Positions 8,717 through 57,333 of a stretch of 64,000 bases of DNA are shown here, piece by piece. This stretch comes from a virus (taxonomy: Duplodnaviria > Caudoviricetes), in IMG/VR virus record IMGVR_UViG_3300042291_000844, positions 32,001 through 96,000 of that record; one strand, written 5' to 3'. Both the position numbers and the translations under genes were made by a program. Below the pieces are notes generated by a model. It had not been told where the DNA came from. It worked only from the letters and a program-made list of their open reading frames with translations, and did not search any database. Position 1 is the stretch's first letter. Each line of letters opens with the position of its first letter.

Positions 8717-8728
8717 ATATCTTATATT

Positions 8729-8959
8729 TTATTTTAACCATAAATTGTAAACATAATCATACTTTACATTCAAAGTCTCTGCAAGTTTCTCAAACAATCT
8801 CTCTCTGATTACACTATCGGTAACACCAATGTATCGGTAAACATCCTCACCAACAATCAGTTTATTTAATAGACCGGGAAATGTGGGGGTTTCATTCAAT
8901 TCTAATCCCAAATCATCGGTTGGGAAGTTCTCTACATAATACTCTTTAATTGTGCTCAT
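8729..8959 (-). CDS. Small hypothetical protein
   Basis: 76 aa; D.Y..IGV.DS.IRERLF..LA..L...YDYVY.LWL; first gene after promoter copy 2. Confidence 0.6.
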   Translation of the reverse strand: MSTIKEYYVENFPTDDLGLELNETPTFPGLLNKLIVGEDVYRYIGVTDSVIRERLFEKLAETLNVKYDYVYNLWLK

Positions 8960-31006: not shown

Positions 31007-31544
31007 AGTATAACTCTGGATATTCTGCTAACACATGAATACCAATATTTTCAGTTGCGTATTTATAAGATAATTCAACATCTTGCCAAGTCTTTAAATC
31101 ATGAAATTCTATATTAGGACACATTGATTTAAATTCATCTATATAATTTCCTTTATGTTGATGACCAGGGTCTAATGGTTTATCTGAGCCCTTGCCTACT
31201 CTAATTAGGATATGTGGATTCCATTGACCATTAGACATTTTTTTAATTTTATCTAAATGATTTACCAATTGGTTTCCTGCACATATTACAAAATCCCAAC
31301 GTGGATAAAATGAAACTACTTTATGTCCCGTCATTGCCAATCCCAAACTCATTCCCATTTGAGTTTCTTCCATAACAGGAACTTCAATCATTCGTTCTTT
31401 TGGTAACCCATCAATCGTTTTTGACATTGGATTTCCATAATAAACAATTTGTTGACCAATTAGGATTGTGCTTTCATCATCCATTAATGTTTTCATTGCA
31501 GTTGTTAATGCATCAACATATGGTGTAAACTGAGGTGTACTCAT
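30996..31544 (-). CDS. TPP-dependent dehydrogenase E1-beta / transketolase pyrimidine-binding domain (short)
   Basis: E.PV.EETQMG...GLAM.G, G..H.G motifs; lacks the usual C-terminal domain. Confidence 0.8.
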   Translation of the reverse strand: MSTPQFTPYVDALTTAMKTLMDDESTILIGQQIVYYGNPMSKTIDGLPKERMIEVPVMEETQMGMSLGLAMTGHKVVSFYPRWDFVICAGNQLVNHLDKIKKMSNGQWNPHILIRVGKGSDKPLDPGHQHKGNYIDEFKSMCPNIEFHDLKTWQDVELSYKYATENIGIHVLAEYPELYYAN

Positions 31545-32536: not shown

Positions 32537-32540
32537 ATTT

Positions 32541-34653: not shown

Positions 34654-35276
34654 TTTCCTGTTCCATAATGTGGATATTTTGATTTATATTTATAATAGAT
34701 AACATCTTCTGGTATTTCTCTCTGAATTTCCCCCCAAGTGTGTGATGTCGGTGTATTTGTAGAAACTTCATTATCTTCAACTACAAAATAAAGAGGTAAG
34801 TTGTGATTTCTAGCGTATTTATGTACCTCATAAAAAATTCCAGTCTCAAAAGTCATATCACCAATGAAACACCACACCTTTTTATCTTCACCTTTTAGTT
34901 TAATTGATTTAGCAACACCCAATGCAATAGGTAAAATCCCCGTTACAATGGCTGAAGAGTAAAAATTACACTTTTTATTTACAATTGTTATACTTCGACC
35001 ATCTAAAATCTCATCTTTTAACCAAGATTCATCAATCCCATGCAAAAGTGCATGATAATGAGACCGCCAAGTAGAAAATACCCAATCATCTATACCTACT
35101 TTTTTGAATATTTCTATTAACTCATCCTCATTTCCATTTGATAAATGTATTGGGCCGTGGATATCTCCTGCTTCCCAATGTTTAATGATATCGTCTTCAA
35201 ATCCAATGAGTTGTTCTTTTGTAAGATTACCATCAAGCCAACGGTCTTCGTGATAATTCAAATTTTTAATTTCCAT
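34638..35276 (-). CDS. TPP-dependent dehydrogenase E1-alpha (short)
   Basis: G.IHLSNGNE, ST.RSHYH, TPP motif variant GDM...EDN; 212 aa. Confidence 0.82.
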   Translation of the reverse strand: MEIKNLNYHEDRWLDGNLTKEQLIGFEDDIIKHWEAGDIHGPIHLSNGNEDELIEIFKKVGIDDWVFSTWRSHYHALLHGIDESWLKDEILDGRSITIVNKKCNFYSSAIVTGILPIALGVAKSIKLKGEDKKVWCFIGDMTFETGIFYEVHKYARNHNLPLYFVVEDNEVSTNTPTSHTWGEIQREIPEDVIYYKYKSKYPHYGTGKWVVF

Positions 35277-35850
35277 TTTTATCTCTATTTGAAAGTATTG
35301 GTTGTGCTACGGGCCATTCAACATTAAATCGTTTATCGTTAAACACTATTGTTTTTTGTTTATTCTCATCGTTATATTCACCTTCATATGCCATTTTGTA
35401 AAAAAAGATAGAATTATCCTCCATCACATAATGACCATTAGCAAACATTGGTGGAATTAGAACTTGAGTACCAGTTTCCGGTGAAATTATAAAAGATTCC
35501 CATTTACCATAAGTTGGTGAGTTTGGTCTAACATCCATTACAACCAAATATATACGACCATGCAGACAACTTACTAATTTCCAAGTCTTTTCATCATAGT
35601 GCATTCCTCTCAATACACCTACCTTTGATTTTGAGAACCTATCATGCTTAAATTCTAACCCATTGTTGCGTTCAGCGGCGGGCAACAAACGGTCATAATA
35701 CTCTGAGTGATAAGTTGTAGAGATTGAACCTCTATATTCGTAATACGTGGATGGTTGTACGATTTTTATCTCTGGTAATACCAATCCATTGTAATAGTGA
35801 AAATCATTCCACTCTCGTTCCTTATAAAATATACTACGTCCTGTTGCCAT
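35266..35850 (-). CDS. rfbC: dTDP-4-dehydrorhamnose 3,5-epimerase family
   Basis: S.S..GVLRGMHY, KLV.C..G.I..V..D.R..SPTYG.W, .IPP.FANG. Confidence 0.9.
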   Translation of the reverse strand: MATGRSIFYKEREWNDFHYYNGLVLPEIKIVQPSTYYEYRGSISTTYHSEYYDRLLPAAERNNGLEFKHDRFSKSKVGVLRGMHYDEKTWKLVSCLHGRIYLVVMDVRPNSPTYGKWESFIISPETGTQVLIPPMFANGHYVMEDNSIFFYKMAYEGEYNDENKQKTIVFNDKRFNVEWPVAQPILSNRDKNGN

Positions 35851-36805
35851 AACTTAAAGGGAATCCATTTCTATATTTTGAAGATAAGTCTTGGATTAAA
35901 ATTTTATATGTTTTTATTAATTCTATGATTCCATCATCTAAACTATATTGGGGAGTCCAACCTAATGATTCTAATTTAGCATTGGAAACAATATAATCTC
36001 TTTTATCGGGGTCTTCATAATAATCCGAATATGTGATTGCAAAATCAGGTACATATTCTTTGATTTTTTCTACTAATTGTTGTTTTGATAAATTAGCGTT
36101 TGAAAGGCCCACATTAAATACGTCTCCTTTTAATTTTTCATAATTTTCTATCATATACACAAATGTATTTGCAACATCTCTGATATGAATGTAGTTTCTT
36201 ATGAAATTTTTCTCAAAAATGGTGATGTACTTATCAGTTAATGCTTTGTAAACAAATTCATTAACAAGTAAGTCCATTCTCATACGTGGTGATGAACCAA
36301 AGACGGTGGCAAGTCTAATTGAAATACCACCATAGTTTAATACTTCTCTCTCAGCATTAACTTTGGTTACACCATAATGAGAAATGGGGTTTAGTGGACT
36401 CTCTTCAGTACACTCACCATTCTCTCCTATCCCATACCCACTATTTGTGTTGGGGTATATAATCTTTTTATTAGAATCTTTTATTCTATCACATATAAAT
36501 TGTACATGAGTATAATTTACTGCAGTAGCAAGGTCTTTATCTCTATCACAAGCCGGAAATCCTACGATTGCTGCTAGAGGAATTATTACATCTGCCTCAT
36601 CAACATATTTTGAAAGTTTTTCCTGGTCTCTAACATCACCATAAATGAATTCAAAGTTCTTTCTCCAACTATAATGTATTAATGATGTTTGGTTATACAT
36701 TAAATTATCATAAACTGTAAGTTTAGTAATTCCACCATTATTAAATAACCTCTCAATTAATACCGAACCTAAATAGCCTGCACCACCTGTAATTAAAACA
36801 TTCAT
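35834..36805 (-). CDS. NAD-dependent sugar epimerase/dehydratase
   Basis: GGAGYLGS, LAAIVG.PAC, YGVTK, RLATVFG.SPRMR.DLLVN. Confidence 0.9.
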   Translation of the reverse strand: MNVLITGGAGYLGSVLIERLFNNGGITKLTVYDNLMYNQTSLIHYSWRKNFEFIYGDVRDQEKLSKYVDEADVIIPLAAIVGFPACDRDKDLATAVNYTHVQFICDRIKDSNKKIIYPNTNSGYGIGENGECTEESPLNPISHYGVTKVNAEREVLNYGGISIRLATVFGSSPRMRMDLLVNEFVYKALTDKYITIFEKNFIRNYIHIRDVANTFVYMIENYEKLKGDVFNVGLSNANLSKQQLVEKIKEYVPDFAITYSDYYEDPDKRDYIVSNAKLESLGWTPQYSLDDGIIELIKTYKILIQDLSSKYRNGFPLSYGNRT

Positions 36806-38229
36806 ATTAAATCTATTAAATTGTTTCTAAACATATTTTCATTTCTATTATTATTATAAAAAGAATGTAATAATTTTTTGTTAAAAATTAATATATCTTC
36901 CATATTTTTAATCATTTCAATCATTTCTTCTTGTGATTTATTACAAAGTTTTTTAACTTCGTTTATAATCATATCACATCTTAATTTAAAATTAGTTTCA
37001 TTATCATAACTTTCATCCCAAAAATTAGAAAAAGTTTTAAAACCTAAATCTTGTAAATATTTTAAACTATATGGTGAACCTACAATGAAAAATGGATGTA
37101 AATTCATAATTGGTTTTGTAGTCTTTTCGGTTATAAACAAATAACTTTTTTCAGCATTAGTTTCACCAATAATTGAAAAAAATGTTTCTTCATATTCTTT
37201 TTTTCTACTTAAATAATTATGAAACCAAGCAATTGTATCACCATCTTCTTCATCAATTGTTAGTGGATAATATTGTTTGTATGTTTCTTTTAAATCATTA
37301 AAATCCGATTTAGTTAAATCTAATTCTGGAACTGATTCATCTATTTTTTTAATATATTCTTCAAATTCTTCATTTTTAATTAAAGAAATATATCCATCAT
37401 CTAATAAATTATTTTCAAATAACAATTTTACAAACCAGGGGCGATGTAATCTTGATGTATTTCTATTATACATTAAAAACCGCTTGGGTTTTGGTTCTAA
37501 TTTTAATTCTGATTGTAAAGAATAGATATATTCCTTTGAAACAATTTCTTTATTTTTAGTTGCTCTTAATTCTGAGATAAATTTACCAGATTCATTTATA
37601 TAACTATCATTACAAAATGTACTGATTCTTTTAATGCCGTTTGGGTTTAATGTACTATTATTAACGTTTTCAATTAATCCATTGACCGTACTTATAATAA
37701 CTTTGTTTATATGCGATATTGAATTTCTATCTAAAAATTCATTTATTTTTTTAAAAAATTCAATATTATGCTCATATGAACCTTCCCATATATCAACAAA
37801 CATTATTTTAAAATTTGGATACTTCTTAACTAAATTTAATAATTTTGAAGATATCATATTTTCAATTTTATTATTTTCATTTCCATAATACTCAAATAAA
37901 ACTTGAGTTGAAAATGATTCAAAACATAATAAATAAATTTCATCTTCATTTATTGTTTCATCGTTTAAATCATTAACTAATATATGGTTTAAATGTCTGC
38001 CTCTTTCATATAATTTAATTGGATAACTACTATTTCTTTTATGATACGTTGCAGGGTCGTTTGATGAATTAACTATAATTACATAATCCTCATCTCTAAG
38101 TGTTTCTATACTATCAAGGGCATTAATTGGAAATGTATATTTGTTATAACCCAATGGTAAAAATCCATTTGGAGTTTTAAACTCATACACAAAATTAATA
38201 TTTGTTTTTATTAATTGCTGTCCATCCAT
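36802..38229 (-). CDS. Glycosyltransferase-like protein, paralog C
   Basis: FLMYNR...HR, IGET..FITEKTTKP...HPF...GFKTFSNFWDESYD. Confidence 0.5.
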   Translation of the reverse strand: MDGQQLIKTNINFVYEFKTPNGFLPLGYNKYTFPINALDSIETLRDEDYVIIVNSSNDPATYHKRNSSYPIKLYERGRHLNHILVNDLNDETINEDEIYLLCFESFSTQVLFEYYGNENNKIENMISSKLLNLVKKYPNFKIMFVDIWEGSYEHNIEFFKKINEFLDRNSISHINKVIISTVNGLIENVNNSTLNPNGIKRISTFCNDSYINESGKFISELRATKNKEIVSKEYIYSLQSELKLEPKPKRFLMYNRNTSRLHRPWFVKLLFENNLLDDGYISLIKNEEFEEYIKKIDESVPELDLTKSDFNDLKETYKQYYPLTIDEEDGDTIAWFHNYLSRKKEYEETFFSIIGETNAEKSYLFITEKTTKPIMNLHPFFIVGSPYSLKYLQDLGFKTFSNFWDESYDNETNFKLRCDMIINEVKKLCNKSQEEMIEMIKNMEDILIFNKKLLHSFYNNNRNENMFRNNLIDLI

Positions 38230-38933
38230 TCTTTATCGTATTTATTTAAATTATTACCATTATTGGTAATATCTAAAATTTTGTATGGAGTTGTTTCATT
38301 AAAATCATAATAAGCAACAGGTTTGTGTTCTGGTATTATTATCTTAGCAAAAGCATCTTTAATTTCATAATCTGTTAAATATTTTTGATATACTCCAATT
38401 AATTTATATTCACCAAAAAAATGATGTCTATGTTCTATTGATGAATTTTCTAATGGGTTTGCACATCCAATCCATAACCAAGATGAATTATAATCTATTA
38501 ATTTATTTGGAACATCAATTATTTTTTTACGGTCGTTTACAATTAATTGTAATTTTTGATTAATAATATCATATGAAAAAACTAAATTAATATATTCATC
38601 ACTAATATCAGGTGTATTTATAACATCATTCAATGGTATAACAATTTGACATATACCTTTTTCTTCTGGTGTTTCTGTTTCAACCCAAACTGCACCTTTA
38701 ACAATTCTAAAATTATCACCGGTTTTAGCAACTGATATACCTAAATGTTTTCCATTTTTTATCATTACTGCGGCTTCTTGTGTATTTGAGTTTTCTTGCA
38801 ATTTACTCCAATCTACCTTTATTTGACATAAAAATGTAAAATCACTATTAGTAAGATGTCTTGATGATACCTTACTTAATCCATATCTACTTGTAGGTGG
38901 GACGAACCAAACTGAATCTCCATTTATAATCAT
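38211..38933 (-). CDS. Stand-alone LamG / concanavalin A-like domain protein
   Basis: WIGC.N...F.GE......Y...L...EI, .AYYDFNE pattern shared with the GT7 inserts. Confidence 0.65.
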   Translation of the reverse strand: MIINGDSVWFVPPTSRYGLSKVSSRHLTNSDFTFLCQIKVDWSKLQENSNTQEAAVMIKNGKHLGISVAKTGDNFRIVKGAVWVETETPEEKGICQIVIPLNDVINTPDISDEYINLVFSYDIINQKLQLIVNDRKKIIDVPNKLIDYNSSWLWIGCANPLENSSIEHRHHFFGEYKLIGVYQKYLTDYEIKDAFAKIIIPEHKPVAYYDFNETTPYKILDITNNGNNLNKYDKEWMDSN

Positions 38934-40375
38934 AATTTAATTGTTTTAGTAAATTCATAAAAATCAGCTAATTCTGGAAATATTTTTTTAAAATCTGTTC
39001 CTCTACGTTTATCGTGCTCTTCAAAATATTTTCCAAAATTATATCGTTGTTCAAATAATTTTTTATCATCAATTGGTGCAATCATCCAATCATATGTTCT
39101 TTTAATTTTTTGAATTTCTATATCAGAATATCCAATATATTTGTTTTCAAATAAAGGTACTGATAAAAAATCTGCTCGTTGTGCTTGTTTAAAAATTAAA
39201 TCAGCAAAATCATACGGAAGAACTTGAATTGTTTGATGGGTTGGATATCTTAAATAAGATGTATCTAAAAATACAGCAGATTGCCAATATCTATCAGCCG
39301 AACCATAATTCTTTTTTAAATCATATACCCCATCAATTAATTTATGGTAGTTTGGAACTGATAACGCGTTATACGTTGTCATAAATGTAAGATTTACTCT
39401 TGGACACTTTGTTAATATTTTATTTACATTATCCCAAAATCTATTAAATTCTAATCCATGTCTAATATATTCAGCTTGTTCTCCCCAACTATCACATGAT
39501 GTAAAAATAATAAATTCTCTAACTCTATTTTCATCACAAATTTTATTTACCTTGTCAATAAATTTATCTATTAATTTATCAGGTACGCCTAAATTTGAAT
39601 TAATTGCAAGTTGTAAATTTCTATTTGGGTCTGAGTGGTCTATTATATAATCTAATACATCCCACGTATCTTTTGACATTAAGGGTTCACCTCCGGTAAT
39701 TCTGAATGTATGCAAATCCTTATACAAATCAGGCCACCATTTCCAAAACGCATCAACATAGGGATTTAATTCACTATGTTTTATTGGCATTTTGTTTTCT
39801 GATTTGTTATATTCTAATGAATTAAATCCGTCAGTTGTTGGATAAGCTCCAAACTCTTCAATTTCTTCCATCCATTTTGATGAAAATGCAGGTGCACAAT
39901 ATGAACACTTAAAATTACAAGCGTTTGAAAATGCTACTTCTACATATTTTGGATTATAATCATCTCTCCAATCAGAATTTTTAATTTCATCCATAAATGG
40001 ATAAGACCAACTTTCTGCAGATTTAAATGTTCTATCGGAAAATCTATCTGAGTTATCCTCTACTCCCCAACAATAATCACACTCCGAAGGACGTTGCCCC
40101 TCTAACATCTCTTTTCTTCGTCTTTTCTTATATTGGGTATTATGTAATGCAGATGGGTTTCGTGCAATTTCTTTTGTAGGAATTGGGTGTGTACGGGGGT
40201 GATGACATGAATGAGTATGACCCAATTGTAAGTGTAATGTAGTTTGTGTCCATTTAGCCAAACACATACCATTTCCCGTTTCGTTTAATTTCTCTCTAAC
40301 CCCTAAATAAAATGGGTTTTCGCCAGTTAATGAATTTTTAAGTTCCGTTGATTTTATATTTTCTTCTTCTGCCAT
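38930..40375 (-). CDS. Radical SAM protein with N-terminal twitch-like Cys cluster
   Basis: CNFKCSYC, ITGGEPL; N-terminal C.AKW..SCHH and C.YCW. Confidence 0.9.
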   Translation of the reverse strand: MAEEENIKSTELKNSLTGENPFYLGVREKLNETGNGMCLAKWTQTTLHLQLGHTHSCHHPRTHPIPTKEIARNPSALHNTQYKKRRRKEMLEGQRPSECDYCWGVEDNSDRFSDRTFKSAESWSYPFMDEIKNSDWRDDYNPKYVEVAFSNACNFKCSYCAPAFSSKWMEEIEEFGAYPTTDGFNSLEYNKSENKMPIKHSELNPYVDAFWKWWPDLYKDLHTFRITGGEPLMSKDTWDVLDYIIDHSDPNRNLQLAINSNLGVPDKLIDKFIDKVNKICDENRVREFIIFTSCDSWGEQAEYIRHGLEFNRFWDNVNKILTKCPRVNLTFMTTYNALSVPNYHKLIDGVYDLKKNYGSADRYWQSAVFLDTSYLRYPTHQTIQVLPYDFADLIFKQAQRADFLSVPLFENKYIGYSDIEIQKIKRTYDWMIAPIDDKKLFEQRYNFGKYFEEHDKRRGTDFKKIFPELADFYEFTKTIKL

Positions 40376-46449: not shown

Positions 46450-47235
46450 TTATAAAAAATCGAAAAAATTTATATCATAGTACTCATTAACTTTTTTAGT
46501 ATATTCATCATTTAGTTTTGATTTAAATCGCTCACTACAATCAGTAAGAAAGATTTCGGCATGGTCATCTTGCTTTCGATTACTTCTATCATATAAATGA
46601 TATATTGGCGTATGTTTATAGTTAAGAATTGAATAACCCATACCAATACTTCGATAAGTTGGGTCAATCTCATCATATCTCCAACATAAAAATTTATCAT
46701 ATCCAACTTTTTCTAACCACTCAATTGTAGTAAAATGATATCCTCCTGCAATAGTTGATTTACAATAATCTTCACCATTATTATTTGGTTTCATTACAAA
46801 TGGATATCCACCTATTTTTTCTCTATTCCAATCATTTGCATGATGTGCTTTATTTTCTTCAAATTTACCATATAATGGATATGCAGGAGGATATGCCGAT
46901 AAAATGGAGTTTGGTAATAATGCATTAATTAATATGGTATCCCAATTTTTATCAAATCTCATATGACTATCAATTGATAAAAAATATTTAAATTCAGGTT
47001 CTATAAAATATTTAGCAAGGGAACGTATCCAACAAAGATTTGAAAATTTTCTATAATCAACATTTATTAAAGTAACTTGAGATGGAAATAAATCTTGAAA
47101 AAACATATCTGATTGTCTATCTTGATTAAACACAATAATTTTAATATTATTTGGATTTTCTGCTTTATTTATCAAATCAAAACAAGTAGGAATTACTTCT
47201 TTATCTAATCTGCAAGGTATATAAACGTATATCAT
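46450..47235 (-). CDS. Skp1-hydroxyproline GlcNAc-transferase-like protein (GT60-like)
   Basis: IDSHMRF...WD..LI, ILSAYPP.Y, AGG..F, .EI..T.R, YHLY; ATG 47235 overlaps upstream stop (ATGA). Confidence 0.75.
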   Translation of the reverse strand: MIYVYIPCRLDKEVIPTCFDLINKAENPNNIKIIVFNQDRQSDMFFQDLFPSQVTLINVDYRKFSNLCWIRSLAKYFIEPEFKYFLSIDSHMRFDKNWDTILINALLPNSILSAYPPAYPLYGKFEENKAHHANDWNREKIGGYPFVMKPNNNGEDYCKSTIAGGYHFTTIEWLEKVGYDKFLCWRYDEIDPTYRSIGMGYSILNYKHTPIYHLYDRSNRKQDDHAEIFLTDCSERFKSKLNDEYTKKVNEYYDINFFDFL

Positions 47236-48062
47236 CGGATAAACCAATCTTTTATTAAATTATAAAAATCGTTATTTGGGAATTCTGCTATATTATGATT
47301 TGGGAATGTTGATTTTTTAAATATTGGGTCACATGAATAATGTGCAAAATAATGTTTTTCTTTATCAAATTCATTTATGTTTGGAAAATATGTATTATCT
47401 TGTCCTATACATTTTATTCGATTATTATGACAAGCAATTTGAAATGACCACATTTGTTGCCACCAACCAAATGGAGAATTTAAATGATTTCTAGCAATAT
47501 CAATACCGATTTCAATAACCTCATCTATTATTCGTTTTAAAGTTTTAACTTTTATAATAATAGGAACAAACCCACCATCCATATATTCGTGGGTGTCGTG
47601 TTTTAAATATGGTTCGACTATTTTATAATTTTCCTTATCAGGTCGACTACATTTCATATGCCAATTTTCATATTTATCACAAGTTACAACTTCATCGTCA
47701 TTAGGTAATATTCCATCATATTTTTTAAATGGAATTACATCACAATCAATTATACAAACATATTCATTATTATCTAAATCATTTAATATTTGTTTAATTG
47801 CAAAAAATAAATTTCCTGCTGAAAAATATGGATGTTCATCTGATAGGGGTAATATTGTATGAACTCCATCTACAATTTTGTATGGTATACTTAAATTCCA
47901 ATCAACATCCTTAATTATTTTACCATGAGAATTTCTATCTGCAATTAATACAATAGAATTCCAAAATGCTAGATTCCCATATACATTTTTTTGTGCATAT
48001 TGAAATAAACTACTTTGCCATTTAAATAAGTTATTTGATACTGCTACGGGTATTGTTATCAT
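47232..48062 (-). CDS. Hydroxyproline O-arabinosyltransferase-like (GT95/GT96-like) glycosyltransferase
   Basis: KWQ..L.Y, IIDCD DxD, GG.VPIII, FGWWQQMWSF, HY motifs collinear with recalled plant HPAT motifs. Confidence 0.6.
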   Translation of the reverse strand: MITIPVAVSNNLFKWQSSLFQYAQKNVYGNLAFWNSIVLIADRNSHGKIIKDVDWNLSIPYKIVDGVHTILPLSDEHPYFSAGNLFFAIKQILNDLDNNEYVCIIDCDVIPFKKYDGILPNDDEVVTCDKYENWHMKCSRPDKENYKIVEPYLKHDTHEYMDGGFVPIIIKVKTLKRIIDEVIEIGIDIARNHLNSPFGWWQQMWSFQIACHNNRIKCIGQDNTYFPNINEFDKEKHYFAHYSCDPIFKKSTFPNHNIAEFPNNDFYNLIKDWFIR

Positions 48063-48681
48063 ATTTTTTTAATAATTCGTATATTTTGTTTGCAATTATT
48101 TTATAACCTAAATAATTTGGATGGGTATCACCACCATCAGTATTTTGCCAACTATATGGATATCTAAAATTATATTCCCAAACAGAAATATTTTTTTGTT
48201 TTTCATAATCTATTAATAAACTACTCATAGTTAATTCTTTATCAATAAATCTACTTAAATTAATATTAGTTGTATCTAAATTTAATTCAGTCATAAAAGT
48301 TTTTGCAAATGAATTAAATAGAAAATAATTATATTCTGATAATAAAGTTGTTATAGATTTTACATCATCAATAGGGTTACCATTATCTCTATATGGATAA
48401 CTTAGCATAATAATAATAATATCATCTTTATGTAAATATTCTATATTTTTTTTTATTTCTTCAACAATATTTTTATTACTAAAATTACACCATCCACAAT
48501 TCACAAATGGTAAATCTAATAATGTAGCTAAATGTCTTGGCCATCCATTTGAATTTCTTAATTTATTAGTAAATTCATTTGGTGAGATAACTTCTTTATA
48601 ATGAATATCCAATTCAACCCCATGTCCTTGTGTCCAGGAATCACCAAATGTAATTAATCGTGTATTAGACGTTACTTTCAT
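48031..48681 (-). CDS. SGNH/GDSL-fold protein
   Basis: FGDSWT block I, G..N, DTHPN..GY block V. Confidence 0.75.
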   Translation of the reverse strand: MKVTSNTRLITFGDSWTQGHGVELDIHYKEVISPNEFTNKLRNSNGWPRHLATLLDLPFVNCGWCNFSNKNIVEEIKKNIEYLHKDDIIIIMLSYPYRDNGNPIDDVKSITTLLSEYNYFLFNSFAKTFMTELNLDTTNINLSRFIDKELTMSSLLIDYEKQKNISVWEYNFRYPYSWQNTDGGDTHPNYLGYKIIANKIYELLKKYDNNTRSSIK

Positions 48682-49864
48682 ATTCCCAATTTTTTAATTT
48701 ATAATGAATATACATATTTCTATAATATTCACCTTCAAATTCATCTTTTCTTCCGTGTAAACAAACGGCAGATTCGTACAATAATACATCTCCTATTTCC
48801 ATATAAATAGTATGGAGGTTTCCATTATGGTCTTCTATTTGTAACCCCCAATCATTTCCATCGCCTAAATTTTTATCTATCATAATAATAGATGATATAT
48901 GATGAGTTTCAAGTCTATCGTAATGTGATACTAATTTAGCACCTTTATTATAACTTCGGATACCATAGATATATGTAGGTTCGATTTCTTCACCACACCA
49001 ATTACTATGTATTGATTGTAACTTTTTATGTAAATTATTTTTTAATTCTGGAATCGTATCTAATGGTAATATATCAGATGTATTATTATTACCTAATATA
49101 ATACTTTTTTTATGTTCAAATAATTCTTCTGTTTTATTATTTTTAACTGATTCGTACATTGTATTTACTAATTCTAAATCTTCAACTGACAATTTGGTTA
49201 GTAAAAACCCAGTTTCACTTAGTTTTGGTAACCCATCTTTTGTAGAAAATTTATTTTTTAATGATTTTATTTTTGGATATTTTGCATCGTATAATTTTAA
49301 ATCTAACGTTGAATTCCACGGCTTTTCTCTAACCCATATTGTTATAATATATTTAGAACCATCTATTACATCACACCCCTCATGTAACGAATCGGTTGTC
49401 GGTATACCATCAACCATATTTTGCCACGCAATCGCAGTTCCAATTTTTGGAGTAAACGTTAAATCTAAATTATGAAATTTAGTTTCACCACCCACAACGT
49501 CCTCATTTAAATAAATCATAACCGTCCAACATCTATTACCTGAATGTAAACAATGTTGTTCATATGAATGTTCATTAAACCAATCGTGATGTTGTCTAAA
49601 AAATTGTCCTTTTTTATATACTTGTCCTTGAACACTTTCTATATGATTAGCAGGTAATCCTACTTCTTTTGTAACTTTTTGTTTTATTTTTTGCGTAATA
49701 AATTGTCCTTCTTTAATATTAGAAGTTGAACTTGTTCTAGCATCATGTAATACACCAACATAATTACCGACCACAGTACTTGGTTGATTATTTGCATCAA
49801 TTTGTTTTATTAAATCAATACATTCATCGTTAGATAAAAAATTATCAATTTGTCGTATTATCAT
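48665..49864 (-). CDS. Prolyl 4-hydroxylase with a second 2OG-Fe(II) domain
   Basis: Domain 1: RTSS, Q...Y..GQ.F..HHDWF, R..T..IYLN....GGET.F, H....V..G.K...T.W.R; domain 2: SHYD...HG. Confidence 0.88.
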   Translation of the reverse strand: MIIRQIDNFLSNDECIDLIKQIDANNQPSTVVGNYVGVLHDARTSSTSNIKEGQFITQKIKQKVTKEVGLPANHIESVQGQVYKKGQFFRQHHDWFNEHSYEQHCLHSGNRCWTVMIYLNEDVVGGETKFHNLDLTFTPKIGTAIAWQNMVDGIPTTDSLHEGCDVIDGSKYIITIWVREKPWNSTLDLKLYDAKYPKIKSLKNKFSTKDGLPKLSETGFLLTKLSVEDLELVNTMYESVKNNKTEELFEHKKSIILGNNNTSDILPLDTIPELKNNLHKKLQSIHSNWCGEEIEPTYIYGIRSYNKGAKLVSHYDRLETHHISSIIMIDKNLGDGNDWGLQIEDHNGNLHTIYMEIGDVLLYESAVCLHGRKDEFEGEYYRNMYIHYKLKNWEYESNV

Positions 49865-49870
49865 ATTTTA

Positions 49871-51520
49871 TTAGTCTTGTGCTTTTATTTCTGCTCTATT
49901 GTGTACTAATATTCCATTACCAAAATAAACATCATCTTCTTCAATTCCAAGTGATACTGTATTTAAACTTTCATTTATTATATCGATGGTTTCAATTAAT
50001 ATAAATTCATCATTATTATTTAATAATAAATCACCTTCTATTAAATTTTTAACCTGTAAGAATATTACTTCATTATTTCTTTTAACTAAAATTGGATGTT
50101 CGTATGTTACTCTTAATAATCCATTATTTATGGAATAATACCAACTATATGAACCGTGAATTAATCTATTAACTACCGAAGTTGATTTTGTATATTGTAA
50201 ATCGTTAGTTGCAAATATTTCCCAATTTTCTTCTATATTTTTATCTAATCCTGTTATAGAAAGACTCATTACCACATCTCCCATTTCTAAATTTTCAATT
50301 AATTTAGTAGAACCATCACTCATTAAAATTTCACTTCCATATGATAAACAAGGAGCACAACCTGAATTCTGACATTCTTGTAAACTTGTGTATATACCAA
50401 ATACATTATCAATTTCACATACCCCATTATTACAACTATATAAATCCCCAACCGGTGGGAAATAAGTAGGTACAGTTGGTATAGTTGGAGCTACATAAGT
50501 AGGAGTTACATCCGGAGCCGGAGTTACTTGTGGTGTTACATTTGGAGCAGCGTCACAATTTATATTTCTAACTTCAACCACCGATATATTATACGAACTA
50601 TCGTACACCGCAACATAATAATTTCCATTTGCTAATTGATATGCACTTTGATTTAAATTATATGCGTTAGGGTCATTAAAATTAATTGCTTGATTACCAA
50701 TGTGATAAACATAATTTCCAGAACCACCACTTACGGTCACTATATCAATATATCCATTACCTGCATAACCAAAACAACCTACATTAAGTGTCATTGATAA
50801 GAAATACGCAGCAGGAGTAACATTTGGAGCTGGAGTTACTTGTGGTGTAACATTTGGAGCTGGAGTTACTTGTGGTGTAACATTTGGAGCTGGAGTTACT
50901 TGTGGCGTTACGTTTGGAGCCGGAGTTACTTGTGGTGTTATGGCTGGTGATGGAGTAAATCCACAAGCCAATGCACATGTGTTATATCGAGTAGTCTTTA
51001 ATAAAACTGCAATACCTGGAGATGCTTGGTCAAGAATTTTATAATTATAAGTCAACTCATTATCAGCAGTTCTATAAAATCTATTTAATAAAACAGTTGT
51101 ATCAATTGGAAATGCAACAAGTACTTCAGATTGTGAAACTGTACCACAATTACTACACACATATTCATCTGCTAAATAAAAATCATATGGGTAATATGCA
51201 GGTGTAACATTTGGAGCAGGAGTTACCTGTGGTGTAACATTTGGAGCTGGAGTTACTTGTGGTGTTACATTAGGAGCAGGTGTTACGTTTGGAGCCGGAG
51301 TTACTTGTGGTGTTACGTTTGGAGCCGGAGTTACTTGTGGTGTAACATTTGGACTTGGTGAACCGCTACCCCTACCATAAAACTCATCCATCCCATGCGG
51401 TTTTGTAGGAATTCCATAAGCAATCGCAGCAGTATCTAAATCTATTTGAGTACCAGATGGGACAGCCCTATCGGTATTCATATTATCCATTGAAATTTGT
51501 CCTGATGCTGGTAACGCCAT
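49871..51520 (-). CDS. Pro/Thr-repeat virion (tail-fibre-associated) protein with C-terminal Hint domain
   Basis: MALP.SG.IS...FYG N-terminus; 21 VTP units; Cys-rich spacers; CL..GS.I.M.DG, TYEHP, VHN Hint blocks. Confidence 0.8.
   Translation of the reverse strand: MALPASGQISMDNMNTDRAVPSGTQIDLDTAAIAYGIPTKPHGMDEFYGRGSGSPSPNVTPQVTPAPNVTPQVTPAPNVTPAPNVTPQVTPAPNVTPQVTPAPNVTPAYYPYDFYLADEYVCSNCGTVSQSEVLVAFPIDTTVLLNRFYRTADNELTYNYKILDQASPGIAVLLKTTRYNTCALACGFTPSPAITPQVTPAPNVTPQVTPAPNVTPQVTPAPNVTPQVTPAPNVTPAAYFLSMTLNVGCFGYAGNGYIDIVTVSGGSGNYVYHIGNQAINFNDPNAYNLNQSAYQLANGNYYVAVYDSSYNISVVEVRNINCDAAPNVTPQVTPAPDVTPTYVAPTIPTVPTYFPPVGDLYSCNNGVCEIDNVFGIYTSLQECQNSGCAPCLSYGSEILMSDGSTKLIENLEMGDVVMSLSITGLDKNIEENWEIFATNDLQYTKSTSVVNRLIHGSYSWYYSINNGLLRVTYEHPILVKRNNEVIFLQVKNLIEGDLLLNNNDEFILIETIDIINESLNTVSLGIEEDDVYFGNGILVHNRAEIKAQD
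50500..51356 (-). repeat. Three blocks of 30-bp tandem repeats encoding PNVTPQVTPA
   Basis: TGGAGTTACTTGTGGTGTAACATTTGGAGC-type units at about 51198-51356, 50808-50946 and 50500-50552. Confidence 0.95.
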
Positions 51521-54500
51521 TACTTATTCTCTTTTAACTCGTTAATTTCTTTTTTTAATTCCTTAATACATTCAACTAATAAAGGTACGATTTTTTCGTA
51601 TTTTATAGCAAGATATCCATCATCTCTTATTGCAACAACTTCAGGTAGAATTCCTTGTACTTGTTGAGCAATTAAACCCACATCGTGTTTTCTAAAAAAA
51701 TAATCATCTTCACCCTTACCATTACTTTCTCTTTGGATATATTCATCTGTCCAATCAAATTCTACTCCATCTAATTTTTCTATTTTATCAAGTGCGTTAT
51801 CTATTGGTATAATATTTTCTTTTAATCTTTTATCTGATGATGCAAATGCAGTTATGTTTCCTGTTGCAGTAATACCACCTCCGACTTCTACAAAAGTATC
51901 TTGAACTGTTCTTGCAACTTTAATATACCTAAGATTACTTGCTACGACTTGAAACCCACCGGGAACTAATTCTACTCTATTATCATCCTTCGATAATGTT
52001 ATTGAATTAATTTTAGGAGTATTGAATGATACATATAATGAAAATGTAGATACCGAACCAAAATAATCACGAGATACAGTTGAAAACGCAGTACTAATAT
52101 ATGGTACAAAATAATATGTTGTTGAAGCAGCAGCAGTAAAGTTTCCCTGAAACGTCCTTGAAGTACCCGTACCATCTGACCCATATACACCAACTGATTT
52201 AGAATAAGAAGTAGTATCCTCAAAGTCATCAATTCCACCAAAAGTTGTTCCAAAATTTGCAACTTCAGTACCAGTGGTACTACCTGCTCTAACCGATACA
52301 CCTGCAGTGATTTGAGTGTTTGCAAAATTTATTTTTGATTGCTGACCTCCGAAGTAGTATTGGTAAGGATTGTAAGGGTCATAAGCTTGTGTAATGTATG
52401 CAGTTACTGCCGCTAATTGTGCTTGACTTATTACGATATCCAGATTATATATTCCCGCATTAGTTATAGTTACAGCAGGAGCAGAGGTTAAACTATAAAG
52501 TCCCCCAGCTAGTATGTTGACACTAAGATAAGTACTACTAGCATTATTTGCTGTTTGAACATCATTAAGAGTGGCGGTATGGGGGATACCAGAGGTTGTT
52601 ATCCCTGAACCACCTGTTCCAAAATTGGTCAATGAAGCCTGATTACTTACTAATACTCTTAAAGTGTTAGATGTATCATAAATTTCTAAACCAGGAGTTG
52701 TTGCTGATGGATTTAATTTTATACTATTAGAATTAGATGAGAGGGTTGTTTGGTTAATTGTCCACCCACCGATAACCCCAGCACCTGCAGTAATAGTAGC
52801 ACCGGTAATCGTACCACCGGTAATACTACCACCGGTAATACTACCACCATTAATACTAGTTCCAGTTATAGTACTAGCAGCAAGTGTTCCACTAATTGTT
52901 GCACCCGCGGCATTTAGTACGCCGGCCGCAGTTACACTAAATGGTGCAGAATTAAATGCGGAATTTCCTAACCAAATTCCAGTTGTATCTGCTTTAAAAA
53001 TACTAGTTCCACTTCCGATTGAAATTGTACCTCCACTAAGTTCACCTGTAAATGTACCCGCACCATTAATAGTTAAAGATGAACCATCCCATTTTAATGA
53101 ATTAGTAGCAGATTTTAAAGATAATCTATATACGGGTGCGTTACTAACATTAACTACCCCCATAAAAATACCATTTACATCGTATCCTTGTGAACCAGCA
53201 GTTGCACTTTGACCGATAGATATATACGGATATGCACTACCACCTGCTAAAGTAATATTTGCTGCTGCCATTGCACCATTCGAATTCGTACCAATGTTTA
53301 AAGTTTTTTGAACAAACGAATCTTCAAATATACCTATTTTAGCTGCTACAAAGAAATCCTGTGCACCTAACGATATCCAACCCGTTTGTGCTGCTTGATG
53401 TGGTGCACCATTTATTACATTTCCTGTTGCTGAAAGATGTTGTCTAGTTGTTGCGTAATATGTATTATAAGGAGCATTTCCATCCGAACTCCATAAGACA
53501 GTATCTCTTCTACCAGTCCCCGTTGTTAACCCATCTGAAAATTGATATGTTCTACCACTCACCCAAACTCCGGTATGAACCACACCAGGACCGGTCTGAC
53601 CATTGGCACCCGGTGAACCATCATCTCCATCAGTTCCATTCGTTCCATTCGTTCCATTTACTACTTTTGTAAATCTAACAACAATAGTTTGAGAACCACT
53701 CGTTCCTTCACTATCGGTATAACTAACTACGATAGTAGCAGAAGCCTCTGCCGCATTCATTACAGCTGTGGAAGTATTTAATATATTATTATTTCCACCT
53801 ATGTTTGGATTTGTTGAAAACCCACTATATGTCGCAGTCATTGAATCAAATCTACTAGTAGTTCCTTCTAATGCAGAAATTGTAACATTTGTTAAAGTTC
53901 CTGTTTGAGTACCTGCAGAATTTGCTAATACTGATTGTGCTTGCGGTGTTGCAGTTACTATAATATTTGGAACTGCTTTTTTAACTTTTGATAAACTTAA
54001 CGTATCAGTTAAAGTCCTACTCGTTCCTTCCGAATCAGTTACTACTGCAGTTATTGTAATCGTAGATGAAGCTACCCCACTTGGTAATGTTCGTAAACCA
54101 AGAACTGGGTCTGAAACTAATCGTATCAACCCACTTGCGGCAGTTGTTGCTATTGATGCAATATCCGAAGATGTTGCAGTCAATGACGTTATTGTTTTAT
54201 TTGTTGTAGACCCATTATAAGTTTCTTTTACAATTACACTTACATCTACAAAGGGGTCTAATTGAACTCCTGTTGACTTTGCAGTTACACTTTGGTCTTT
54301 TGGTGTTGATGATATAGCTAAAACCGGTGCAGCCTTTTTAATTTTTGTTAATGAAACACCTCCAAATACATTTCTACTAGTTCCTTCGGAATCCGTTACC
54401 GAGCCCGTTATAGAAAGTTCAACCGAATCCGTTCCGGTTACCATATTTGGATATGCTAAATTTGTAGTTGTTTTTGTTATAGGTGTAAATGCTGAACTAC

Positions 54501-57333
54501 TATTAATTGTTGGTGCATTTGCTAAAGTTAGGGTTGAGGTAACCCCATTATATTGTTCTTTTACTGATAAACTAGAATTAGCAAATGCAGTAATTTGTGT
54601 ACCTATTGATGTTGAATCAGTTGATTGATTATTATTTCCAATTACAAATTCTAATACAGGTGCAGCTTTTTTAACTTTTGAATAAGTTATTTCTTTTGAA
54701 GAACTAATTATAGTTCCACCGCCATCCTGATATTTTACTAATAAAGTCAAAGAACCACTATCTTGACTTAAAGCATTTATTGAATAATTTGTTCCGTTAA
54801 ATGTATTAGCAGTTAAACCTGAAGTTGTTAAAATACTTGCACTAAATGAATTATTAGTAATAGGAGATGCATAACTTATAACTTCATTACCAACTTTAAC
54901 TGTTATAGAACCGCTACTTGCAACAAACCCGCCTATTACCGAACCAACCGAATTAGCAGGAAAAGATGTATTCTCATTACTTGTTGCAACTGAAAACCCA
55001 TCTAATATTTTTATGGGAGTTATTTTAATTGCATCTGAAAATTTATTTCCAAATTGGTCAGAACCAGTTATTGAATAAACCGCTTCTCCAATTCTATAAT
55101 CAAAATTAGTTCCGTTTATAATATATGTATCTACTCCATTTGTTGGATTAGCCACCCCAACTTGTGTTAATAATGGTGCAGGATATAAAACCGAAGATGA
55201 TACTATATTTACCTCTAATGGAGTTGAAGCAGATGCTAAATTTTTTCTTTTAGCTTCTATTGTTATTATTTGACCACTTGGATTTAGGGATAAATCAGTT
55301 GCTTTATAAATAAATTGATTTGTATTTGCAGTTACAAATACACCAGGTGCGTTATCACCATCTTCAAATCTATAAATGGTTTCAAACTCATTTAATCCAT
55401 CACATGATGCAGTATAAGTTATAGAACCAACTAATACCGATGCAACACTACCACTAAAATTAGCAATAGTTAAACTTGCACCACCCTCTCCTGCGTTTGT
55501 TAAAAGACCAGGATATGTTCCCGCATAACTAGCAGGAACTATATAATTACCATTTGAATCAAACGCAGCTGATGCGTAAGTAACTGAACCTGTTAAATTT
55601 TGTTTTGTTACTTTAAATCCAATTTGTTGAAAAGCAGGATTACCAAATGAACCACTGCTAAAACGAAATGCAGTTCTATCTGATTCAAATGTTAAGATTT
55701 TTGATGTGGTTGTAAAACTATTACCACCATTAAATGTTTTTGAAGTTTTTACATCAACGGGAATATAGTTGTTATTTATATCGTAAAATTCAAATTTGAA
55801 ATCATATGTCTCACTTGCAAGTTTACGAGGAATATCTTGTATTAAAGTAAATTCATCAGGTGAAAATGAAGTTTCTTGTGCGTTTTGTAAACTTACATTT
55901 GCCAAATACCAATCATCCCCCGCAAACTCAAATACTAATTTAGCATCTCCGGTCTTAGTGGCCTTTACATTTTGAGTTACGTTTTGTTTTGTAGTATATA
56001 TCGCCGAATTAGTGACATTTACAATAGTTTGTTGCGGATACGCCGAACCACTAAAATAAGCTTTTAAAGTTTTAGTTGAATCATTTGAACCACTTAGGAG
56101 TGTTTTAAATGAAAGGGTATACTCTACGCCCTCAGTCAGAGACAGGGATTGGGATGTGATTAAAAGGGCGGTATTATCATAATTTGTACCACTATAATCT
56201 ACGTGAACCGATGCGTTTAATTTATCAACATTTATTGTCATTGGATGTGTATTCGAACCACTTACCCAATAATTTTTTATATTTGTATCCGTAAACTGAC
56301 CGTAAGATAATTCCGTAGTAGCAGTTGTAGTTACATCTTTTAGTATTTCTGATGATTCTAATTTAGTATCTTGTATGAACTGATAATCACCAACTTCGTT
56401 TCTAGATTTTCTATAAACCTTTACTCTTGCTACATCACCAACAAATGTTTTTAAATCTGATAATTGAATTTTAGCAAAAGAACCCGTCAATGCTGATGTT
56501 TCAAATGTTTGTCCTTCAATGTGGTCAAATGTAGTTGTATATGCCGTAGCAGGAAAATTTGAAACGGAGGATGATATTAGATACGGAACATCTACAAATA
56601 CCTCTTTATTATTTAGGACTTCTCTTACAGTTGCGGAATACCCTAGTGATGGTATTTCTATCGTATTTTCATCAACTGATGATGTCCAATTTGAACCATC
56701 AGTAATTTTCAATTTATATAAAGTTCCGGCTGTCCAATTTCTAATATCAGTACCATACACCGGTTGTTGTGGTATACCCTCAACCAATCCCGTTTGAGTA
56801 ATTGATGGGGTTGTTATGTTAAAAATGGGCTTGTTTATCTCATCAATTGTAATTTTAGGTCTTTGGTAAAACCTAACAATAGTTTCATTAGCAAGATTTT
56901 TATTTACATTAAACGTTCTTTCCCACTTAATATTATAGATACCACGCCACTCTTCAGGAACATCCCTAACTACTCCATTCTCGTCAATATAGGTCTTTAA
57001 TTCACCTAATACAGTAATTTTTCCTAAACCAATAGGAGTATCCTCATAGACGTGAACTGATACAATTTTTGAAATTCCTTCGTAATATTCTGGTATACCA
57101 TTACCCGGCTCGTAATAAATCGGTGTTCCGGTTACGTCCAATATCTCAATCTTAATTTCAGTTGTTTCCTTTAAATGCTCAGAACCCTCTATAAGAAACC
57201 CATTCTTACCACCGGTGAGGGTATCTTTGAATTCGGTTATTCTAAAATATTCAGACGTTCTAACTTGGTCATTTATAAATGTACCAAAGTTTGATAAGTT
57301 TTGATACGAAGCGAACGATTTAATTATTGCCAT
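51520..57333 (-). CDS. Long tail fibre / tail-tip protein with C-terminal peptidase S74 chaperone
   Basis: 1937 aa; repeated (S/T)K(V/I)KKA(A/V)P and TDSEGTS units, short G-X-Y run, SDKRLKENI...GLIAQ.V....PEVV...Y.K.VPLL.E.IKEL. Confidence 0.88.
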   Translation of the reverse strand: MAIIKSFASYQNLSNFGTFINDQVRTSEYFRITEFKDTLTGGKNGFLIEGSEHLKETTEIKIEILDVTGTPIYYEPGNGIPEYYEGISKIVSVHVYEDTPIGLGKITVLGELKTYIDENGVVRDVPEEWRGIYNIKWERTFNVNKNLANETIVRFYQRPKITIDEINKPIFNITTPSITQTGLVEGIPQQPVYGTDIRNWTAGTLYKLKITDGSNWTSSVDENTIEIPSLGYSATVREVLNNKEVFVDVPYLISSSVSNFPATAYTTTFDHIEGQTFETSALTGSFAKIQLSDLKTFVGDVARVKVYRKSRNEVGDYQFIQDTKLESSEILKDVTTTATTELSYGQFTDTNIKNYWVSGSNTHPMTINVDKLNASVHVDYSGTNYDNTALLITSQSLSLTEGVEYTLSFKTLLSGSNDSTKTLKAYFSGSAYPQQTIVNVTNSAIYTTKQNVTQNVKATKTGDAKLVFEFAGDDWYLANVSLQNAQETSFSPDEFTLIQDIPRKLASETYDFKFEFYDINNNYIPVDVKTSKTFNGGNSFTTTSKILTFESDRTAFRFSSGSFGNPAFQQIGFKVTKQNLTGSVTYASAAFDSNGNYIVPASYAGTYPGLLTNAGEGGASLTIANFSGSVASVLVGSITYTASCDGLNEFETIYRFEDGDNAPGVFVTANTNQFIYKATDLSLNPSGQIITIEAKRKNLASASTPLEVNIVSSSVLYPAPLLTQVGVANPTNGVDTYIINGTNFDYRIGEAVYSITGSDQFGNKFSDAIKITPIKILDGFSVATSNENTSFPANSVGSVIGGFVASSGSITVKVGNEVISYASPITNNSFSASILTTSGLTANTFNGTNYSINALSQDSGSLTLLVKYQDGGGTIISSSKEITYSKVKKAAPVLEFVIGNNNQSTDSTSIGTQITAFANSSLSVKEQYNGVTSTLTLANAPTINSSSAFTPITKTTTNLAYPNMVTGTDSVELSITGSVTDSEGTSRNVFGGVSLTKIKKAAPVLAISSTPKDQSVTAKSTGVQLDPFVDVSVIVKETYNGSTTNKTITSLTATSSDIASIATTAASGLIRLVSDPVLGLRTLPSGVASSTITITAVVTDSEGTSRTLTDTLSLSKVKKAVPNIIVTATPQAQSVLANSAGTQTGTLTNVTISALEGTTSRFDSMTATYSGFSTNPNIGGNNNILNTSTAVMNAAEASATIVVSYTDSEGTSGSQTIVVRFTKVVNGTNGTNGTDGDDGSPGANGQTGPGVVHTGVWVSGRTYQFSDGLTTGTGRRDTVLWSSDGNAPYNTYYATTRQHLSATGNVINGAPHQAAQTGWISLGAQDFFVAAKIGIFEDSFVQKTLNIGTNSNGAMAAANITLAGGSAYPYISIGQSATAGSQGYDVNGIFMGVVNVSNAPVYRLSLKSATNSLKWDGSSLTINGAGTFTGELSGGTISIGSGTSIFKADTTGIWLGNSAFNSAPFSVTAAGVLNAAGATISGTLAASTITGTSINGGSITGGSITGGTITGATITAGAGVIGGWTINQTTLSSNSNSIKLNPSATTPGLEIYDTSNTLRVLVSNQASLTNFGTGGSGITTSGIPHTATLNDVQTANNASSTYLSVNILAGGLYSLTSAPAVTITNAGIYNLDIVISQAQLAAVTAYITQAYDPYNPYQYYFGGQQSKINFANTQITAGVSVRAGSTTGTEVANFGTTFGGIDDFEDTTSYSKSVGVYGSDGTGTSRTFQGNFTAAASTTYYFVPYISTAFSTVSRDYFGSVSTFSLYVSFNTPKINSITLSKDDNRVELVPGGFQVVASNLRYIKVARTVQDTFVEVGGGITATGNITAFASSDKRLKENIIPIDNALDKIEKLDGVEFDWTDEYIQRESNGKGEDDYFFRKHDVGLIAQQVQGILPEVVAIRDDGYLAIKYEKIVPLLVECIKELKKEINELKENK

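Follow-up and report, generated by a model that had tools for sequence, protein, structure and literature searches.

A Candidate Hydroxyproline-Glycosylation Cassette Behind the Tail Fibre of an Uncultured Freshwater Phage

We analysed a 64,000-nucleotide stretch of a tailed-phage genome (Caudoviricetes; positions 32,001 to 96,000 of IMG/VR record IMGVR_UViG_3300042291_000844), hereafter called the window, and focused on five minus-strand genes that directly follow its tail-fibre gene. These genes encode a proline-repeat protein, a double oxygenase that begins with a prolyl 4-hydroxylase (P4H) domain, an SGNH-like protein, an HPAT-like glycosyltransferase (GT), and a GT60-like glycosyltransferase, and we consider it probable that together they make up a single late pathway, linked to the tail fibre, by which the phage modifies an appendage protein of its own in the cytoplasm of the host. 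A first-pass annotation of the window had proposed that the phage hydroxylates and glycosylates an appendage resembling mucins or arabinogalactan proteins (AGPs), and the fold comparisons, Pfam matches and co-occurrence across phages described here support that proposal as a prediction from genomes. The O-glycosylation of hydroxyproline (Hyp) is considered a trait of eukaryotes, known from the cell walls of plants and algae and from the Skp1 protein of protists, and our literature searches on phage hydroxyproline, HPAT or GT95 returned no description of such a pathway in phages.

A five-gene cassette coupled to the tail-fibre gene

The window comes from a low-GC (about 30%) phage whose terminase, portal, major capsid and tail-fibre genes all lie on the minus strand, and near-identical DNA is present in three IMG/VR contigs and in 24 metagenome runs from lake water or freshwater; the look-ups for the window DNA listed no RNA runs. 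The tail fibre (51520..57333, minus strand; 1937 aa) matches PHROG tail-fibre families at E 2.5e-30 and ends in a Peptidase_S74 intramolecular chaperone (56 bits). Packed behind it are five minus-strand open reading frames (ORFs) at 49871-51520, 48665-49864, 48031-48681, 47232-48062 and 46450-47247, and comparison of the last one with its orthologues makes the ATG at 47235 its probable start. The stop of the fibre gene and the start codon of the repeat-protein gene overlap in a TAATG; the junctions after that consist of a 6-nt gap and then overlaps of 17, 32 and 4 nt, so that both the ORF coordinates and the junctions agree with the earlier description of five consecutive, overlapping or near-abutting genes coupled by TAATG to the fibre. 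The same order, with an S74 fibre followed by a repeat protein, is repeated in two other loci (L204 and L205). The window holds a five-gene version of the cassette, with a GT60-like gene, an SGNH-like gene and a Hint-tipped candidate substrate, accompanied by a glycan cluster of roughly 17 kb.

The candidate substrate is P0001 (49871..51520, minus strand), an appendage protein of 549 aa and the sole Pro-repeat ORF within the window. It consists of a conserved 50-aa N-terminal module, three blocks of (V/A)-T-P and A-P repeats, two small globular modules with Cys residues and, at the C-terminus, a Hint domain. The 21 VTP units counted in the first-pass annotation are exact. The unit is PNVTPQVTPA, and the blocks, all on the minus strand, span aa 52-112 (51185..51367) and aa 187-239 (50804..50962), both recognized as tandem repeats and the second differing in copy number from L001, and aa 326-359 (50444..50545), recognized from its VTP units. 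At the DNA level the repeats are 30-nt tandem repeats with 89-95% matches, and thus the VTP pattern is not due to chance. The blocks contain 43 prolines, 23 of them preceded by T and 12 by A, and P0001 carries the clustered, non-contiguous (Ala/Ser/Thr/Val)-Pro motifs of plant hydroxyproline-rich glycoprotein (HRGP) and AGP substrates. Its N-terminus is the conserved polar 50-aa module and not a hydrophobic secretory signal peptide.

Near-identical phages have versions of P0001 that differ by exactly one 10-aa repeat unit, and an 89%-related phage has APTP-type repeats in place of the unit with the globular modules almost unchanged. Since the number and type of units shift while the globular modules stay, the repeat tracts evolve as composition-constrained spacers. 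Members of the family defined by the 50-aa module carry PPSPTP, PPTPA, pure poly-Pro or Thr-rich tracts, and their genes again lie directly behind S74-type fibres with a one-base overlap. One relative of the module, P0111, has a BACON domain (PF13004). BACON domains are typical of glycan-binding proteins of Bacteroidota, and this one hints at a Bacteroidota host.

At the other end of P0001, aa 391-541 (49898..50350, minus strand) form a Hint or bacterial-intein-like (BIL) domain, a feature overlooked in the first-pass annotation. Five Pfam families of the Hint clan match P0001 at 13-21 bits, all under their cut-offs, the best PDB match of the region is the BIL domain 2lwy (E 1e-3), aligned via TxxH and VHN, and a PHROG family of virion structural proteins (38766) matches the same region at E 8e-9. 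The Hint motifs, Cys391, T472-Y-E-H475 (TxxH) and the terminal H540-N541, are invariant in orthologues. We rejected a true intein, in that HN is followed by Arg or Ile and the chain ends just 8 residues after HN. Because the residue after HN in P0001 is Arg, which leaves no splicing nucleophile, self-cleavage or transfer is predicted instead of splicing, and from its motifs the domain probably cleaves itself or passes on the 390-aa N-terminal part through a thioester. Cys1, TxxH and the terminal HN are shared with the BIL/Hint domains of variable surface proteins, 2lwy being the best solved match, but here the domain lies at the extreme C-terminal end of an appendage protein from a phage, for which we predict self-cleavage.

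The second gene (ORF 48665-49864) encodes P0002, a 399-aa double oxygenase. The first-pass annotation had called it a prolyl 4-hydroxylase, and for the N-terminal domain (aa 1-185; 49310..49864, minus strand) this assignment holds: the 2-oxoglutarate (2OG) oxygenase family 2OG-FeII_Oxy_3 (PF13640) matches at 59.8 bits against a cut-off of 27, and the P4H of Bacillus anthracis matches at E 7e-21. In fold comparisons with the P0002 model (predicted local distance difference test, pLDDT, 91), this domain gives Z 23.3 with Chlamydomonas P4H-1, 21.7 with PBCV-1 vCPH, 21.2 with the Bacillus enzyme and 20.6 with human P4H, whereas non-prolyl enzymes reach Z 15.8 or less, and in Swiss-Prot the folds that match best are those of Arabidopsis P4Hs (P4H1, 31% identity). 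The iron and 2OG ligands H92-x-D94, H161 and K171 are invariant among 24 homologues. On the strength of its motifs and modelled fold, we regard the segment of residues 1-185 as a bona fide P4H domain, predicted to form trans-4-hydroxyproline.

The remainder of P0002 contains a second 2OG-Fe(II) oxygenase domain (aa 213-399; 48668..49228, minus strand) that had likewise been overlooked. Its residues H314-x-D316, H370 and R372 are invariant, its fold matches generic small-molecule or amino-acid hydroxylases (Z 15.2 to 6n1f, 14.7 to HalB and 13.3 to 2rg4), and it is 40% identical to a stand-alone oxygenase of cyanophage S-SCSM1; judging from these residues, it is apparently active. In some relatives a domain of this C-terminal type stands alone beside the HPAT-like gene (the L036 cluster, at L036 9420-10004, and L008, at 8334-8939), in others a domain of the N-terminal type does so (L019 and L075), and in L013 and L014 the two domains are split. 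Since each occurs alone, or split, near HPAT-like genes, we conclude that both domains belong to the system, and the second may itself make the acceptor, as it is the sole oxygenase near the HPAT-like gene in some lineages. Two tandem double-stranded β-helix domains in one chain also occur in the OGFOD1/Tpa1/Ofd1 prolyl 3- or 3,4-(di)hydroxylases (whole-length Z 14, E 1e-12), but the second domain of those enzymes is not known to have iron ligands, whereas both domains of P0002 keep HxD...H.

Of the two transferases, P0004 (47232..48062, minus strand; 276 aa) is a GT-A glycosyltransferase similar to HPAT (GT95) and SGT1 (GT96). Its earlier assignment as HPAT/GT95-like is supported by a match to the HPAT family PF23452 that lies above threshold (42.6 bits, cut-off 23.9, profile positions 71-250 of 307) and by the fold, and its DxD motif, D106-x-D108, is invariant. 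When the AlphaFold model (pLDDT 95.5) was compared with Swiss-Prot, the eight best matches (E 4e-11 to 6e-10, template modeling (TM) score 0.66-0.76) were seven HPATs of legumes and Arabidopsis, ranked 1, 2 and 4-8, and the extensin Ser-galactosyltransferase SGT1, ranked third (E 5.5e-11, TM 0.69), so that P0004 could belong to either of the sister families GT95 and GT96. All are well apart from GT6 enzymes, the next class (E 2e-7, TM 0.5), and from GT8 enzymes, and PDB yields generic GT-A matches only. In the model, residues 2-8 of P0004 form the first β-strand of the catalytic core, with alignment beginning at about residue 60 of HPAT, which leaves no type II membrane anchor. Arabinosylation by P0004 should not be assumed from these matches. 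A profile of the phage HPAT-like proteins found only 93 cluster representatives among 1.84 billion proteins, including a Brassica HPAT-like protein at E 1.4e-9, and none of the homologues bore an informative name.

The other transferase, P0005 (46450..47235, minus strand), had been described as resembling the Skp1-type GT60 enzymes, and its product does match PF11397, at 73 bits against a cut-off of 21; within its D93-x-H95 motif, D93 and H95 are invariant in 7 homologues. Sequence searches of PDB with P0004, P0005 and the GT60 profile gave nothing useful, so it is the Pfam match that places P0005 in GT60. Between the transferases and the double oxygenase lies P0003 (48031..48681, minus strand; 216 aa), an SGNH-like hydrolase or acyltransferase. 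It covers the full length of PF00657 at 21.8 bits, just under the cut-off of 23.6, but G13-D14-S15 and D185-x-H187 are invariant in orthologues, in keeping with the previously noted SGNH character; the latter motif has the spacing DxH instead of the SGNH-typical DxxH.

Co-occurrence and fusion of the enzymes across phages

To compare gene neighbourhoods, we used 86 loci in total, consisting of 80 of the 125 IMG/VR loci found with HPAT-like relatives plus metagenome contigs. The HPAT-like relatives at these loci are 34-99% identical, their source contigs range from 20 to 300 kb, and dereplication at 70% identity left 19 clusters. At least 30 residues of Pro-rich repeat were required for a Pro-repeat protein, and 117 random, GC-matched IMG/VR phage loci served as the control.

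The two-domain oxygenase adjoins the HPAT-like gene in about 70 of the 86 loci, usually immediately upstream, and a P4H is adjacent in 14 of the 19 clusters. Of these 14 clusters, 13 also have a Pro-repeat protein flanking the module, as against 0 of the 5 that lack an adjacent P4H (Fisher p = 5e-4, an upper bound on the significance that overstates independence because the loci are phylogenetically related). The first-pass annotation had suggested asking whether the P4H, HPAT-like and GT60 genes accompany Pro-repeat genes across related phages, and the cluster counts, with distant phages included, support that the P4H and HPAT-like genes do. Pro-repeat ORFs number 8.9 per 100 kb at module loci vs 0.86 per 100 kb in the random loci, and at least one is held by 65 of 86 module loci vs 9 of 117 random loci, where the repeats are different in kind (E/S/Q-Pro). 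None of the 117 random loci contains the module. Most prolines of the module-linked repeats (86%) come after T, S, V or A, with Thr before 46% and Ser before 18% of all repeat prolines; 75% alternate as PxP, and 7% are Pro-Pro. Non-contiguous PxP alternation is the motif that plant P4Hs hydroxylate. The module-linked repeat proteins are modular and fibre-like, and some match PHROG "virion structural protein" families.

The enzymes are also joined to one another. GT60 is fused to HPAT in representatives of four clusters (P0118, P0128, P0131 and P0135), SGNH is fused to HPAT in L013-L015 and P0112, and the HPAT-like domain occurs further in methyltransferase+GT60+HPAT, methyltransferase+HPAT and HPAT+JmjC/Cupin_8 hydroxylase combinations. 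These domain fusions are independent support for one system. The last combination, at L206 8001-9995, lies on a 142-kb contig with ordinary bacterial genes and no obvious Pro-repeat neighbour, and from its sequence it is possibly a bacterial hydroxylation-glycosylation enzyme.

The contexts of the module include crAss-like and jumbo contigs. In the crAss-like locus L207 (158-11798), a 1785-aa protein that ends in a 240-aa (A/S/T)-Pro tract is followed by a two-domain P4H, a NUMOD3 homing endonuclease, a GT60-HPAT fusion and, further on, a PIG-L-type deacetylase whose presence hints at a glycan containing GlcNAc. In L204 (6001-8806) the order is a fibre, a protein with contiguous, extensin-like poly-Pro, a stand-alone P4H and a DUF6065 protein; since an HPAT-like gene is missing from this locus, P4H and a repeat protein can be paired without the transferase.

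Neither megablast of the 5-kb region nor tblastn of the HPAT-like protein gave a match among 50,697 GenBank phage records, so no cultured phage is usable as a model. A narrow-alignment pattern scan of 185,579 species genomes gave no relative either, within the limits set by its pattern; L206 was found in another way.

Proposed mechanism and competing readings

What the sequences show are the identities of the domains, the coupling of the genes, their co-occurrence across phages and the domain fusions. The mechanism that we propose on this basis is inferred, from its substrate, acceptor atom and sugar to the order of its steps, the self-cleavage and the place of the product in the virion, and would run as follows. 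The plant/algal-type P4H domain of P0002 would hydroxylate prolines in the (T/A)-Pro repeats of P0001 to hydroxyproline, and the fused second 2OG domain would add further oxidation on the same repeats. The HPAT/SGT1-like and GT60-like enzymes would then start O-glycans on Hyp and/or on neighbouring Thr, and the SGNH protein, the downstream transferases, the methyltransferase and the sugar-nucleotide enzymes would tailor or extend the glycan. Finally, the Hint domain would cleave itself, freeing a glycoprotein of roughly 390 aa or perhaps passing it to another molecule. The expected product is a stiff spacer or adhesin, coated with glycans and placed on the tail fibre.

Several points weigh against this reading. 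Pro-repeat genes are missing within 10 kb in some clusters with P4H, HPAT-like and GT60 genes (L058-L062 and L004), a canonical P4H is not adjacent in five HPAT-like clusters, and the relatedness of the loci tempers the Fisher test. The virion location of P0001 is suggested by its gene position and by one PHROG match, to the Hint region only. In PBCV-1 virions, hydroxyproline was reportedly not found despite an active viral P4H and Pro-rich repeat proteins, according to an unpublished analysis cited in the Chloroviruses review (PMC7019647, its reference 162). Given this precedent, a viral P4H accompanied by Pro-rich genes need not yield Hyp in virions. The acceptor, too, could be Thr instead of Hyp, and Thr is possible because GT60 and the GT95/GT96 clade both include Ser/Thr-directed enzymes: in GT60, Ser/Thr-directed GlcNAc-transferases stand beside the Hyp-directed Gnt1 (PMC8724618), SGT1, which acts on Ser, fits the P0004 model as well as the HPATs in both E-value and TM, and the repeats are rich in Thr and, to a lesser degree, Ser before proline.

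These points about the acceptor are the basis for a mucin-type alternative, in which both transferases act on Thr or Ser of the T-P repeats, Hyp carries no sugar, and the P4H only stiffens the linker as a polyproline-II helix or creates a recognition context. The pure Thr-rich tract in P0108, a relative of the P0001 N-terminal module, also suits it. We nevertheless judge it unlikely, since about 16 of 19 clusters have the HPAT-like gene tied to a hydroxylase, and one fusion even joins it to a JmjC hydroxylase. If hydroxylation did not matter to the transferase, such linkage would be difficult to account for. Ser/Thr-free V-P and A-P repeats also lie beside the module, including PVPVPV tracts in L046, L049 and L069.

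We give much less weight to the idea that the enzymes are auxiliary genes aimed at targets in the host (envelope proteins, ribosomal proteins or surface glycans, for instance), for takeover or superinfection exclusion, with the Pro-repeat protein being an unmodified flexible linker. It is true that stand-alone P4H-like and other 2OG oxygenases without known targets are common in cyanophages and jumbo phages, that bacterial P4Hs hydroxylate EF-Tu (4iw3 is among the fold matches), and that the loci mentioned above carry P4H, HPAT and GT60 with no Pro-repeat gene nearby. However, such a gene adjoins the P4H-bearing module in nearly every cluster that has one, at a ten-fold enrichment over random loci, the cassette is translationally coupled to the fibre gene, and the same order is found in crAss-like and jumbo contigs. 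Least plausible, to the point that we rejected it on fold ranking and gene context, is DNA hypermodification, in which a TET/JBP-like dioxygenase would oxidise a base that the transferases glycosylate. Pairs of a dioxygenase and a glycosyltransferase are known from DNA modification in phages, and NgTET1 and AlkB-type enzymes are among the fold matches at Z 12-14, but the P0002 N-domain resembles P4Hs (Z 20-23, 24-31% identity) far more closely than it does nucleic-acid oxygenases, the families of both transferases are protein-directed, and the module lies among tail and Pro-repeat genes, not replication genes.

A pathway acting on the phage's own appendage is the reading we prefer. A more ambitious form of it is that many uncultured aquatic phages, crAss-like and jumbo phages included, make true Hyp-linked, plant-HRGP-like glycoprotein fibre spacers in the cytoplasm by means of a double oxygenase and HPAT- and GT60-like initiators, and that in the phage of the window the Hint thioester attaches the glycoprotein covalently to the virion. 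We hold this form tentatively and would place it slightly on the doubtful side of even.

Downstream glycan genes and comparison with known systems

Beyond the cassette, the minus strand continues with genes that are candidates for extending and tailoring the glycan: a 345-aa GT-B-like protein (45391-46428), a methyltransferase (44418-45209), a weak GT2 (43576-44436) and two GT7+LamG proteins (41859-43292 and 40402-41859). A region at 28850..40375 (minus strand), linked to the cassette by its position only, may supply sugar donors; it contains three NAD epimerase/dehydratases, an RmlC-like epimerase, a split thiamine-pyrophosphate (TPP) enzyme, a radical-SAM-like protein and a further 2OG oxygenase. 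Domain matches agree with the earlier calls of downstream GT7 (two genes, each with LamG), methyltransferase and sugar-nucleotide genes, with the GT2 being weak. The trio of 345-aa, ~260-aa and ~285-aa proteins behind GT60 is also present in L002, L011 and L018.

Some features of this region are unusual in their own right. The fusion of GT7, a β-1,4-galactosyltransferase-type and mostly eukaryotic family, to a LamG/concanavalin-like domain in two paralogues is unusual for a phage. The halves of the split TPP-dependent enzyme (E1/transketolase-like) and the radical-SAM-like protein, at 30996-31544, 34638-35276 and 38930-40375 (minus strand), lie among the epimerase/dehydratases, and their presence suggests that a branched or otherwise rare sugar is made. 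At the far end of the cluster there is a stand-alone 2OG-FeII_Oxy_3 protein of 236 aa (28850-29560, minus strand), and at 23127-28670 (minus strand) a 1847-aa protein combines an N-terminal cytidylyltransferase-like domain with a DUF5661 module.

If our reading is correct, this would be the first Hyp O-glycosylation outside eukaryotes, extending the chemistry to viruses of bacteria in a cytoplasmic version, with a possible evolutionary link to plant GT95/GT96 and consequences for how GT95, GT96 and GT60 are thought to have arisen. The P4H-like 2OG oxygenases of phages, long a puzzle, would acquire a role, as would the ubiquitous PT/PV "linkers" of fibre proteins, and the pathway would affect the protease resistance of appendages and their binding of host or environmental glycans. 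The set of enzymes plus substrate is compact, and its small, soluble, anchor-free enzymes could be used to make Hyp-glycopeptides in E. coli.

Among known systems we compared the cassette with the HRGP pathway of plants and green algae, where P4H, HPAT (GT95) and SGT1 (GT96) act on extensins, AGPs and CLE peptides. The phage hydroxylase domain is nearest to plant and algal P4Hs, P0004 passes the HPAT Pfam threshold with a fold nearest HPATs and SGT1, and the candidate substrates have (A/S/T/V)-Pro sequences like AGP and extensin glycomodules. The phage system differs in that its P4H is fused to a second oxygenase, the identity between P0004 and HPATs is only 14-20%, and a UDP-L-arabinofuranose donor is not expected. 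In plants, HPATs reside in the Golgi as type II membrane proteins (PMC8012813), whereas the phage enzymes, being without a signal peptide or type II membrane anchor, would act in the bacterial cytoplasm.

A cytoplasmic setting is shared with the Skp1 pathway of Dictyostelium, Toxoplasma and Pythium, in which the P4H PhyA acts before Gnt1 (GT60) adds GlcNAc to Hyp; like the phage cassette, it combines a soluble P4H with a GT60-family enzyme and extending transferases. Skp1 has one target proline, whereas the phage tandem repeats have dozens, the phage adds an HPAT-like enzyme, and its P4H is of the collagen/plant type and not PHD/PhyA-like (Z 23 vs 15.3 for the Dictyostelium PHD). The polypeptide α-GlcNAc-transferases of Trypanosoma cruzi and Dictyostelium belong to the same GT60 family and have Thr/Pro-rich, mucin-like repeat substrates (PMC8724618), but they are Golgi enzymes that work independently of prolyl hydroxylation.

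The closest viral comparisons are with large viruses of eukaryotes. Chlorovirus PBCV-1 encodes a P4H of the same subfamily (vCPH, 5c5t; Z 21.7, 30% identity) in a genome with proline-rich repeat proteins, but it is a eukaryotic virus and has no linked Hyp-directed transferase. Mimivirus L230, a virus-encoded collagen lysyl hydroxylase/glucosyltransferase, and the animal LH3/ColGalT1 enzymes likewise couple a hydroxylase to a glycosyltransferase on a repetitive structural protein, and the structures 6ax6 and 8zgc, which belong to this comparison, are among the P0002 fold matches. L230 differs in that it modifies lysine and not proline, in Gly-X-Y repeats of collagen, and serves a giant virus of amoebae.

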